From a virus: a stretch of DNA of 64,000 nucleotides. The DNA lies in IMG/VR virus record IMGVR_UViG_3300021960_000030, positions 1 through 64,000 of that record; one strand, given 5' to 3'. Shown one piece after another: positions 56,834 to 59,722 of this stretch; position 1 is the first letter of the stretch, and every line of letters begins with the position of its first letter. Under the pieces are notes generated by a model that made no database searches, was not told the origin of the DNA, and was given only the letters and a program-made list of their open reading frames with translations. The translations under genes and the position numbers were made by a program.

Positions 56834-57403
56834 TCATAGTATAGGCACAGGATTGCGGAGATCCAGGGGATCGTGGACAGCAAGTGGACTGGCACACTTC
56901 CAGACGTACCCGAGACTGTATCGAATAGGTTCACTCACAGGAGGGCAACCTTGATGCCATATTGTACTGTCAAACAGCACTAATCGCCCTGGTTTGCACT
57001 CAACATGCATAGTTTCACCCTGTTCAGTATAAAACAGAGTGTCACCATCGCCTCTGATGTAATACAGACCACTGATTCTGTCGCTTCCCTTTAGAACATC
57101 CCAATCCGTGTGACTTTGGGCGTTCTGCCCAGGCGTCTGCACGTTCAGCAGGCAGCGATCAAGTTTTTGGATTCTATAATCCAACAGGATGTCATTGCAC
57201 ACTACCATATGCAAATAGTCCACAAACCAATGAGGAGCAATGGGTGCAATCCATCGCTCCTCATCGATAAGCAACTGACCAAAGAACCGACTCACTTCAT
57301 ACTGACCGTAGGGTGAGTTGGTATAGGTTACAGGTATAAGTTGAAACTCTTCTGCATTCTTATTCACCATCCATTGTGGGAAATAGTTATCAACTATCAA
57401 CAT
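56834..57403 (-). CDS. 2OG-Fe(II) oxygenase
   Basis: HTD..GDTLFY..PGRLVLFDSTIWHQG..RYSL (HxD..H..R). Confidence 0.85.
   Translation of the reverse strand: MLIVDNYFPQWMVNKNAEEFQLIPVTYTNSPYGQYEVSRFFGQLLIDEERWIAPIAPHWFVDYLHMVVCNDILLDYRIQKLDRCLLNVQTPGQNAQSHTDWDVLKGSDRISGLYYIRGDGDTLFYTEQGETMHVECKPGRLVLFDSTIWHQGCPPVSEPIRYSLGYVWKCASPLAVHDPLDLRNPVPIL
56838..56896 (-). promoter_or_regulatory. Early promoter copy 6 (palindrome plus TATACT), inside the 3' end of an oxygenase gene
   Basis: GTGGACAG 56873-56880, ACTGGCACA 56888-56896. Confidence 0.65.
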
Positions 57404-57905
57404 GTTGAATACGTTCAGAAATAACCTTAATCATGATAGCACGGATCTCTTCAGGGGCAAAACCTTGAGTGTTAAAGAAGCACGAGTTGCTACCAGCATT
57501 ATATGTATCAAACCCATCAAGGTGTGCAACGTTGAGTGCCTTACCGATCACACCATCAGAGTATGCACCCTCACCGATTGCAAAGGTGACGTATGACACA
57601 TCAGGGTTAATCTTGCGGCAGATGTAGTTGTTCTTGAACCAGCGTTCGATAGCATTACCAGCATCTTGCTGCTTCTTACCTTCAAACACTGCGATCAGTT
57701 TGCCCTTGTAGAACCATGCACCACCATCAGGTTCGCAGGCACCTTTACCACCAGGGATCTGATTCTTCTTCAACTTCTTCTGCAATGTCACACCAGTATA
57801 TTGCAGAACGTCTGCAATCTCTTCCTTGATGACTTTACATTGGTTGTCAAGTTTGCGAGCATGTGCATCAGTAGCAACCATGCCTTTCTGAATGCCGCCT
57901 GCCAT
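57390..57905 (-). CDS. EcoRI/MunI-family type II restriction endonuclease-like protein (171 aa from MAGGIQ)
   Basis: CEPDGG..AVFEGKKQ..AGNAIERWFKN..YVTFAIGEG parallels EcoRI KPDGG..AEAKHQ..AGNAIERSHKN..YVLFLEG. Confidence 0.8.
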   Translation of the reverse strand: MAGGIQKGMVATDAHARKLDNQCKVIKEEIADVLQYTGVTLQKKLKKNQIPGGKGACEPDGGAWFYKGKLIAVFEGKKQQDAGNAIERWFKNNYICRKINPDVSYVTFAIGEGAYSDGVIGKALNVAHLDGFDTYNAGSNSCFFNTQGFAPEEIRAIMIKVISERIQHVDS

Positions 57906-57930: not shown

Positions 57931-57991
57931 ATTATACACACAGAAAAGGGGCGGTGGTGCCGCCCCATGTGGAGGTTGATGGACTGTCACA
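57931..57991 (-). promoter_or_regulatory. Early promoter copy 7 (degenerate palindrome plus TATAAT) upstream of the endonuclease
   Basis: ACTGTCACA 57983-57991; -10 at 57931-57936. Confidence 0.6.
57944..57966 (-). terminator. Intrinsic terminator after the lysozyme-family gene
   Basis: GGGGCGG-CACCA-CCGCCCC-TTTT on the minus strand. Confidence 0.7.
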
Positions 57992-58478
57992 TTGTATATT
58001 TCAGTTTCATCTTTCGATGGTATTGATATGCAAAGTGGGTTCGATTGCCATGGATACCCCAACCCAACCAGGGATAAGAATCACGCACATATTGTGGGAT
58101 TGTTTTCCCTGGGGTTTTCATCCTAGGCAGAATGCCTTGGAACTGCTGCTCATTGTAGAGATAACGGAGTTGTCCTTCCAACGAGTCAACATTGCAGGTA
58201 TGCTTATAGCAAAACTTTGCTAGTCCGTTATACCTGTGTATTGTGGTCCATTGAATCAAACCAAATCCACCAGACTTGCATCCATAATATCCTGTGAGTG
58301 CACCACCTTCGCAAACGAGATGATTAAAGTTGCTTTCTTGCTTGATGTTACCCATCAGTGCAGCGAGAGCATTCTTATCCTTGATCCCTTTTTCTTGAAA
58401 GAACGAGAGTGTTCTTTGTTCGGCAGGGGTACAAGTTTCACATTGATATATGGGTGCAGGAGGTTGATCGTAAAGCAT
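57987..58478 (-). CDS. Phage tail lysozyme-family (Phage_lysozyme2-like) cell-wall hydrolase
   Basis: ALAALMGNIKQESNF..GGFGLIQWT..R..LEGQLRYL..E. Confidence 0.8.
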   Translation of the reverse strand: MLYDQPPAPIYQCETCTPAEQRTLSFFQEKGIKDKNALAALMGNIKQESNFNHLVCEGGALTGYYGCKSGGFGLIQWTTIHRYNGLAKFCYKHTCNVDSLEGQLRYLYNEQQFQGILPRMKTPGKTIPQYVRDSYPWLGWGIHGNRTHFAYQYHRKMKLKYTM

Positions 58479-58483
58479 TAGAT

Positions 58484-59722
58484 TTAGACGAGGGACAGAG
58501 GAGGAATGCCTTTCACGAAGATAGCATCAACTACGTTCTGCAGTCGTTTGGTCACTTGCTTACCGTATGTGCGGTGCACAGGGACAGTTACATAACCGAA
58601 AGGTTTCCTGTAAAAGTCAAACTTACCAGGGGTAAGTTCACCGCTGCGAATGCGAGCGGCGTCATCCTTATGTAGACGGATAACACGCCCGATGGTCTGT
58701 GCCATCTCAACAACGTTGAGATTGCGGAGCAGGATGCAGTGAGTCAGTCCAGGAACGTTGATACCTTCAGACAGAATACTGTAGTGGAAGATAACAAACT
58801 TCTTGGTAGGATCGGCACCCCAAGATGTCAGGGTGTTGAAGAACTGCTCACGATTGACTTTCTTATCGTCTACATAGGCACCGAACTTAGAGGTAACGTG
58901 GAGAACATTGTAACCACGATCCTTAAGTTGTTGGAGAAGATCGGTCTGACCGATCATGTTACCTAGCACACGACTAGACGGCACTGCAACAAGAACCTTG
59001 GCAGCATGAGTATCATCGAGATTGTCAATGATGTCCTGCACGGTGTTGCTGTCAACGACATGTGCGTTGACCTTGTTACGAGTATTGTCTGTGGTGAATG
59101 GCACAATCTGGGGAGGGATGATGCTACCGTTGTTGATCAGTTCCGAAGCAGGAACGTTCTCAATGACGGCACCATAGACCTCACGATTGTGCATTCCACG
59201 CTCATGCTTGTGCGAGATGCGAGGAGTAGCAGTGAAGAAGTAGCAACGCTCTGCAACATCAGAGATGGCAAAGGTGCTGGTGAAGAAAGACTTAGCAACA
59301 CTATTGTGTGCCTCGTCAAAGTACACTGCACTGATATTGATGCCTGCATCAACTACACGACCCAGCGAATGATAGGTGGTGAAGATGATGCAGGACTCAC
59401 CTGCTGCACGAGCGGTGTTGTTGAAGAGAGCAATCTTGCTGCTCTTGGTAGAGTGAAAGTAATGGGTTTCACCACTGTGAGCGTGACACACATGCACAGA
59501 CTTGCTGTCAATGAACTGCATGAACTCATCACACAGTTGAGTAGCAAGCAGGATGCGAGGAGCAACAACAACAATCGTAGAAGATTGCTGCAGTTGACAC
59601 AGTGCATCCTGAATCATGATGAAAGTCTTGCCACCGCCAGTAGGGACAATGATTTGACCCTTATCGTTGACTTGCATTGCTGCAAGGGCACGATCTTGGT
59701 GAGGACGAAGAACAACAGTCAT
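58484..59722 (-). CDS. Superfamily II (DEAH) helicase/ATPase
   Basis: LRPHQ, PTGGGKT, DEAH, TATP, SEGINVP and QTIGRVIR. Confidence 0.92.
   Translation of the reverse strand: MTVVLRPHQDRALAAMQVNDKGQIIVPTGGGKTFIMIQDALCQLQQSSTIVVVAPRILLATQLCDEFMQFIDSKSVHVCHAHSGETHYFHSTKSSKIALFNNTARAAGESCIIFTTYHSLGRVVDAGINISAVYFDEAHNSVAKSFFTSTFAISDVAERCYFFTATPRISHKHERGMHNREVYGAVIENVPASELINNGSIIPPQIVPFTTDNTRNKVNAHVVDSNTVQDIIDNLDDTHAAKVLVAVPSSRVLGNMIGQTDLLQQLKDRGYNVLHVTSKFGAYVDDKKVNREQFFNTLTSWGADPTKKFVIFHYSILSEGINVPGLTHCILLRNLNVVEMAQTIGRVIRLHKDDAARIRSGELTPGKFDFYRKPFGYVTVPVHRTYGKQVTKRLQNVVDAIFVKGIPPLSLV

Follow-up and report, generated by a model that had tools for sequence, protein, structure and literature searches.

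In the present study, we examined a small nuclease gene of a marine cyanophage, in the virus record IMGVR_UViG_3300021960_000030 of IMG/VR, a contig of 111,864 bp with a completeness of 63% according to CheckV. The first 64,000 nucleotides (64 kb) of this record were the stretch analysed and are called here the window. The gene, named R in this text, encodes a protein of 171 aa on the minus strand, and M denotes the Dam-family methylase gene that adjoins it in relatives. In the assembled part of the present genome R stands without M, and the word AATT is missing altogether. On balance, we lean slightly towards the reading that R encodes a solitary homodimeric AATT cutter, which stems from a phage restriction-modification (R-M) cassette, and that the phage is self-immune by complete purging of the site. 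The coordinates of the gene, its motifs and its surroundings are collected in Table 1.

Table 1. Features of the R locus, with positions counted from the first letter of the window
Feature	Position	Strand	Basis
R gene, predicted EcoRI-fold PD-(D/E)XK nuclease, 171 aa, PHROG 2400	57390..57905 (incl. stop codon)	(-)	Open reading frame (ORF), profiles, model
P59-D60-G61-G62, first catalytic motif, aligned with EcoRI P90-D91-G-G	57720..57731	(-)	DNA read and profile alignment
E75-G76-K77, second catalytic motif, aligned with EcoRI E111-A-K113; then Q79 (= Q115)	57675..57683	(-)	DNA read and profile alignment
G83-N84-A85-I86-E87-R88 (GNAIER), aligned with EcoRI 140-145, the inner-AATT reader	57642..57659	(-)	DNA read and profile alignment
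TATAAT, -10-like box; 11 nt from the preceding hairpin, 25 nt from the following ATG	57931..57936	(-)	Sequence; kept in the relative
Intrinsic-terminator-like hairpin and T-run, 7 GC pairs, 5-nt loop	Hairpin 57966..57948; whole element 57940..57966	(-)	Terminator scan
Phage tail lysozyme-like protein, 163 aa, upstream neighbour	57987..58478	(-)	PF18013, E=2.4e-12
SF2 helicase, 412 aa, upstream neighbour	58484..59722	(-)	PF04851/PF00270/PF00271
2OG-Fe(II) oxygenase, 189 aa, downstream neighbour	56834..57403	(-)	ORF and domain match

The nuclease and its relation to EcoRI

A preliminary description of this DNA had named the motifs PDGG, EGK and GNAIER in a protein of 171 aa, and all three were confirmed by reading the DNA itself. 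Among 78 aligned members of the R family, G83, N84 and R88 are invariant, and P59, D60, G61, G62, E75, K77, Q79, A85 and E87 are conserved in at least 90%, so that the motifs are selected and not due to chance. The protein starts with MAGG and its homologs align from about this point. An alternative in-frame ATG at 57932 would give a protein of 180 aa with nine additional residues, but it is placed inside the TATAAT box.

The profile of PHROG 2400, a family annotated as "unknown function", matches the R protein with E=3.6e-80 and covers 170 of the 179 profile positions. By exhaustive search, 230 cluster representatives were obtained at E<=0.001, nearly all of them about 170-200 aa in length and of metagenomic origin. 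The members of these clusters, where named, are called only "hypothetical protein", and cluster look-ups revealed no member named as a homolog of MluCI/Tsp509I, the characterised ^AATT enzyme. In the phage database, the homolog is carried only by S-RIM2 (many isolates), S-BM1 and S-CREM2, and the S-CREM2 copy is already labelled "restriction endonuclease EcoRI". Among prokaryotes, sampled with one genome per species, no relative with the pattern NAIERW[FYS]K was found; this pattern is narrow and of limited sensitivity, and absence from bacteria is not shown by it. No paper on this cyanophage family was found in the library searched. When R was compared with its ortholog in a relative that is 87% identical (IMGVR_UViG_3300033273_000208), dN/dS was 0.09 at a dS of 0.30, which indicates strong purifying selection on R in the purged lineage and a function of R without M.

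Single-sequence searches of the R protein in Pfam, NCBIfam and the Protein Data Bank (PDB) identified no relative. The profile built from the 78-member alignment matches EcoRI in the PDB (1QPS/1CKQ/2OXV) with E=2e-10, and pairs the first helix, PDGG (D91), ExK (E111, K113), Q115 and GNAIER (140-145) with the corresponding elements of EcoRI. About 20 EcoRI residues between Q115 and G140 are skipped in this alignment, and the inner arm of EcoRI (about 116-139) is shrunk to three residues, which do not amount to an arm. The AlphaFold (AF2) model of R has a pLDDT of 93 and a pTM of 0.88. With this model, the five best Foldseek matches are all EcoRI, with E from 7e-6, and VIA-align against structural representatives places EcoRI (2oxv_A) at the top with Z=14.1, an rmsd of 2.5 Å over 152 of 171 residues and 21% identity, followed by a runner-up at Z=9.1. 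The comparison of predicted structures that had been proposed in the preliminary description was thus in favour of EcoRI. The kinship with MunI, which had been claimed along with it, is weak: MunI has Z=7.7 with 13% identity, which is within the range of generic nuclease-core matches, and gave no match to R among PDB sequences and none in Pfam. A neighbouring cluster of phage MunI-domain proteins in the ESM Atlas is noted here as a lead only.

In comparison with EcoRI (type IIP, G^AATTC; PF02963; 1ERI, 1CKQ, 2OXV), the R protein is predicted to have the same fold and the same PD...ExK...Q catalytic strand; it carries an identical GNAIER followed by xxKN, and its predicted dimer uses the equivalent helices. 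The differences are in size (277 aa against 171 aa, with the inner-arm region of about 20 residues and other insertions absent in R), in the site (6 bp against the 4 bp predicted for R) and in the partner methylase, which in the relatives belongs to the Dam/D12 class and not to the EcoRI methylase family, and which has no counterpart in the present contig. MunI (C^AATTG; PF11407; 1D02) resembles R as a small (about 200 aa) enzyme of the alpha class of PD-(D/E)XK that reads the inner AATT, but it is only a generic structural match without sequence or Pfam similarity. The four-cutters MluCI and Tsp509I share the site predicted for R (^AATT); they are bacterial enzymes with cognate methylases. 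In a review, EcoRI, MunI and MluCI have been grouped as a possible case of mosaicism (PMC4081073). In EcoRI, the inner A:T pairs are bonded by N141, A142 and R145, and A142 is also wedged into the central AT step (PMC4081073). These three contact residues are retained in the R protein.

The score of the predicted R homodimer was 0.68 against 0.01 for the best control. Among proteins whose solved structure is a pair of one chain, 20 of 30 attain this mark, compared with 1 of 23 among those solved as single chains. The dimer runs agree in at least 91% of contacts with a partner pLDDT of at least 82, and the predicted interface consists of residues 84-98 and 117-129, i.e. the helix after GNAIER and the helix 119-127. 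Since EcoRI dimers have already been solved, this prediction may reflect only the likeness to EcoRI. It is most likely that the R enzyme would act as a homodimer on the palindrome AATT.

The partner methylase and the AATT content of the genomes

No methyltransferase had been noticed in the window by the preliminary description, and this statement was upheld when the search was extended to the 111,864-bp contig. Six Pfam families (PF02086, PF01555, PF00145, PF02384, PF05869 and PF13651) have no match in it, and tblastn with the methylase of the relatives gave no match either; in the 63% of the genome that is covered, a cognate methyltransferase is therefore not found. The relative, a contig of 73,883 bp that is 41% complete and 87% identical over 65 kb, has no methylase of the two families tested. 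The two contigs overlap for the most part and together span about 118 kb without a methylase of the tested families.

In the related cyanophages, the situation is different. M adjoins R in 48 of 59 loci (35 of 36, then 13 of 23), and in the 35 of 36 IMG/VR loci the M orthologs, with an identity of 52-84%, follow R usually within 3-30 bp. S-RIM2 carries a D12-class adenine methylase two genes downstream of R, and in the phage database every record with a close M ortholog also carries R. Most related T4-like cyanophages thus possess a phage-borne type II R-M cassette, in which R is the restriction half and M, an m6A methylase of the Dam family, is the partner. The gene had been described as free of a methylase; this is correct for the assembled part of the present genome, but in the relatives it is normally half of a phage R-M pair. 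An ORF of 351 aa with a weak match to DUF6551 sits between R and M in some phages and is missing in others, as an optional third gene of the cassette (L001:25452-26507, which is SWTG_00031 of S-RIM2; also in loci L009, L012, L030-L033 and L035).

The alignment of M with EcoDam is informative about the site. Y119 (as F), N120, L122 (as I) and P134 are retained, and these are the intercalating and central-pair contacts; K9 is replaced by I, R124 by Q and Y138 by L. The three replaced residues serve in EcoDam to recognise the first pair (K9 and Y138) and to read the G of the fourth (R124; PMC4417163). Judged from this alignment, an M without the readers of G:C pairs but with those of the central AT would fit AATT as its site. 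In the R tree, the present record and its relative form one well-supported branch amid an unresolved polytomy of R+M lineages. Since the tree is otherwise unresolved, the direction of the change rests on parsimony only; the parsimonious reading of these sequences, which is not a proof, is that M was lost in this lineage.

The purging of AATT claimed in the preliminary description was confirmed. The contig contains no AATT, where 339 are expected from a Markov model and 599 from base composition, and the relative also has none. The combination of R without methylase and no AATT was found only in these two records. They are separated by 8,184 substitutions, which on random placement would have created about 155 (125-185) new AATT sites; none is observed, which means that selection against AATT is ongoing. 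The same is seen in the codons of the long open frames. AAT for Asn is used 0 times in 294 when the next codon starts with T and 812 times in 2064 otherwise, Lys, Glu and Gln codons ending in A are used in 0 of 296 cases before TTN and in 1911 of 3955 elsewhere, and ATT for Ile is used in 0 of 245 cases after a codon ending in A and in 876 of 2215 elsewhere. Every AATT has been eliminated by synonymous and intergenic choices, and new ones are continually removed. MluCI is used in library and Hi-C kits. An artefact of this kind was considered for the missing AATT and is ruled out by the context-specific choice of codons, by the diverged relative and by the occurrence in metagenomes of several studies. 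The same contig is also without any CCGG, of which 154 would be expected, and shows a 5-fold depletion of AGCT and GGCC.

These results bear on one other explanation, a split R-M system, in which a cognate AATT methylase would be encoded in the unassembled third of the genome and the purge would be the extreme of the site avoidance seen in R+M phages. For prokaryotes, R-M systems with separated components have been documented (PMC3488263). The completeness of the contig is 63%, complete or near-complete relatives possess a second, unlinked D12 methylase, and some R+M phages (L026/G004) are already at 0.00-0.12 of the expected AATT. However, a working methylase gives no reason for an absolute purge against about 155 expected new sites, R+M genomes bear up to 990 AATT sites, and the two contigs are free of the tested methylases over their joint length. 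We therefore regard a split system as rather unlikely, and give preference to a solitary AATT cutter in a purged genome.

It had been proposed that the gene should predict AATT depletion across cyanophages, and this proved to be the case. The observed/expected ratio of AATT has a median of 0.37 (range 0.00-0.72) in 37 loci with R and M, and of 0.84 (range 0.50-1.08) in 78 helicase-anchored cyanophage loci without R, which were taken as controls (Mann-Whitney p=7e-17, with loci that are not phylogenetically independent). Relative to the controls, AATT is reduced to 0.24-0.71 in each of the 16 NAATTN contexts, and this argues for a four-base site. In nearly all loci, with or without R, CCGG is absent and AGCT and GGCC are depleted; this must have a separate cause and does not explain the AATT signal. 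A group-wide pressure against CCGG, AGCT and GGCC thus acts in these cyanophages separately from R.

The depletion in all flanking contexts is also relevant to the possibility that R is an EcoRI-fold nuclease of other or relaxed specificity, such as a nicking, structure-specific or repair enzyme, and that the absence of AATT is unrelated to it. In its favour, the R protein is without about 85 of the residues of EcoRI, including the inner arm. Against it, GNAIER, with which EcoRI reads the inner AATT, shows little or no variation, R is in tight linkage with a Dam-like methylase whose central A/T readers are retained and whose G:C readers are lost, and the depletion of AATT is gene-specific in every flanking context. 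We consider such an activity very improbable, and an enzyme directed to AATT is the preferred reading.

A different word is depleted in other cyanophages, in which GATC is at 0.00-0.25 of expectation (L095:8391-9918, L083, L086, L109, L057 and L065). In these, the same spot beside the helicase is occupied by a canonical Dam-like methylase and then an ORF of 215 aa without family, and in L116:6523-8020 an N6_N4 methylase is paired with an ORF of 210 aa. These pairs of methylase and ORF in the GATC-depleted phages may be analogous phage R-M cassettes with GATC as the site.

Upstream module, neighbouring genes and occurrence in the field

The upstream terminator mentioned in the preliminary description was found as a 7-bp all-GC hairpin with a T-run. 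It terminates the preceding lysozyme-like gene, its sequence is unique in the window, and the 87%-identical relative keeps it with a compensatory change in the stem. The early-type promoter described for the gene was found in part: the -10 box is a perfect TATAAT, but the sigma-70 scan identified no -35 partner upstream of R and no full promoter, so that of the "early-type promoter" only the -10 box is present. Ahead of their R copy, other phages carry another hairpin and a TAtAcT box. The arrangement resembles the PeSL cassettes of T4-like phages, in which a stem-loop is followed by an early-type -10 box and a variable gene in a hyperplastic region (PMC2839356, PMC4122927). It is a resemblance only. 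The R module is without a -35 element and its hairpin is unique in the window; PeSLs are not described for cyanophages in these two papers.

The stop codon of R lies 14 nt within the ORF of the oxygenase (overlap 57390-57403), and because of this overlap the two genes are probably co-transcribed. The order helicase, lysozyme-like gene, R and oxygenase is common to the window and the relative, and in many relatives the R-M pair is directly upstream of the SF2 helicase gene. A 1,430-bp contig of an independent estuary metagenome of 2021 likewise connects helicase, lysozyme-like gene and R in this order. For the segment 56800-59800, at least half of the sampled words are present in 16 marine and estuary metagenome runs from 2018-2025, with holders from 14 studies, which indicates a widespread and persistent lineage. 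Metatranscriptome contigs extend over the helicase and the lysozyme-like gene and into the final ~60 nt of R; the body of R is uncovered, and these contigs allow no inference on its expression. Upstream of R in S-CREM2, gp12 (L038:7704-10313) is labelled "CRISPR-associated endonuclease Cas9/Csn1 (virion protein)", which is odd for a structural gene of a cyanomyovirus.

Weighing of the evidence and significance

As far as computation goes, the interpretation given in the preliminary description is supported, and each check proposed there that was run gave a favourable result. The putative miniature EcoRI-type endonuclease keeps the catalytic site and GNAIER without the arm segment of about 20 residues between them, and in this lineage R alone is present (as shown for 63% of the genome) and is maintained by purifying selection. 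The enzyme would be made from its own -10 promoter behind the terminator, and would cut unprotected DNA, such as the host chromosome and co-infecting phages, at AATT. The DNA of the phage itself would be unharmed, since without an AATT site it offers the enzyme nothing to cut. The purge may also protect the phage against AATT nucleases of rival cyanophages. We see about even chances for the fuller proposal that a methylase-free four-base enzyme serves as a weapon against host or rival-phage DNA, with the purge as sole immunity, and that it arose by loss of the methylase.

Several observations weigh against this interpretation. The Pfam model of EcoRI (PF02963) has no match to the R protein at E<=10 and is reached below threshold by 8 of the 78 family members, with a best E of 2e-4; the Pfam model of MunI (PF11407) matches 0 of the 78, and the R protein itself stays below its threshold. 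Since these models are sub-threshold or silent and the predicted fold is that of EcoRI, the R protein is to be placed, on the basis of model and profile, in a separate family of miniature nucleases with the EcoRI fold. AATT as the cleavage site is a point that we infer from comparative genomics. As the contig represents about 63% of the genome and the relative mostly overlaps with it, an unlinked methylase is possible, and complete or near-complete relatives do carry such a second D12 methylase (two D12 each). One complete R+M genome is little depleted, with AATT at 0.69. Furthermore, there are two other lineages in which R is intact and has no methylase next to it, and these nevertheless keep AATT. 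In the first (L141/L142; L142:1797-3277), DUF6267 comes directly after R, with AATT at about 0.8 of expectation over 23 kb; in the second (L144-L150, L155 and L156) it is at 0.27-0.66, with one 62-kb contig at 0.66. A solitary-looking R alone does not imply a purge. The contigs of these two lineages cover 3-29% of their genomes, and in view of this coverage and of the second D12 methylase in complete relatives, an unlinked methylase may protect them. At L148:7034-8540, an intact R stands beside DUF6267 with no methylase between, and AATT is mildly depleted (0.66). DUF6267 as a replacement methylase was considered and is rejected on present evidence, as it is a common neighbour downstream of M elsewhere; it has no sequence match in the PDB.

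The lineages that keep AATT also speak for the possibility that the purge is driven from outside, by AATT cutters of hosts or of rival cyanophages, and that R is incidental to it, as a remnant, a selfish or homing-type gene, or a gene with another, tightly regulated role. Their AATT remains at 0.3-0.85 without an adjacent methylase. CCGG is missing from almost all of these phages although no phage nuclease that would match it is known here, which means that external pressure can purge a 4-mer, and R lies in a variable region behind a terminator-promoter module, at a position that differs between phages. On the other hand, AATT depletion tracks R among phages with equal avoidance of CCGG, AGCT and GGCC, R is under strong purifying selection in the very lineage that is purged, and no prokaryote homolog was detected by the pattern scan, which took one genome per species and had limited sensitivity. 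We therefore give this explanation a low probability, and continue with a solitary AATT cutter whose own phage has removed the site.

Methylase-free enzymes and virus-borne nucleases that spare their own DNA have precedents. PacI, a solitary HNH enzyme of Pseudomonas alcaligenes, has no methylase and is tolerated as its own genome is without the site (PMC3488263). The R lineage would be alike in having a methylase-free enzyme in a site-free genome, and is so only if AATT is the site. The cases differ in that PacI has another fold and recognises an AT-only word of 8 bp that is rare in its GC-rich bacterium, whereas here a 4-bp word that would be expected hundreds of times is actively purged. 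Chloroviruses possess virus-borne R-M systems with an endonuclease that spares their own DNA and are a precedent for R. EndoII and EndoIV of T4 are host-DNA nucleases of a lytic virus that likewise spare its own DNA. The protection in the chloroviruses and T4 is by methylation or hydroxymethylcytosine, whereas here it is proposed to be the absence of the site. The new part of the present finding is the methylase-less and fully purged form.

T4 tells its own DNA from that of the host by hydroxymethylcytosine, and T4-like cyanophages have ordinary bases. If true, a phage-borne restriction at AATT would be a concrete answer to the question of how cyanophages degrade host DNA or exclude rivals without self-harm. 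R would also be an unusually small EcoRI-type nuclease, which might serve as a reagent and as a minimal model of how AATT is recognised. The methylase-less form would show that a virus can replace epigenetic self-marking by ridding its genome entirely of a 4-bp word; this constraint is far stronger than in the PacI precedent and shapes the codon choices of every gene.

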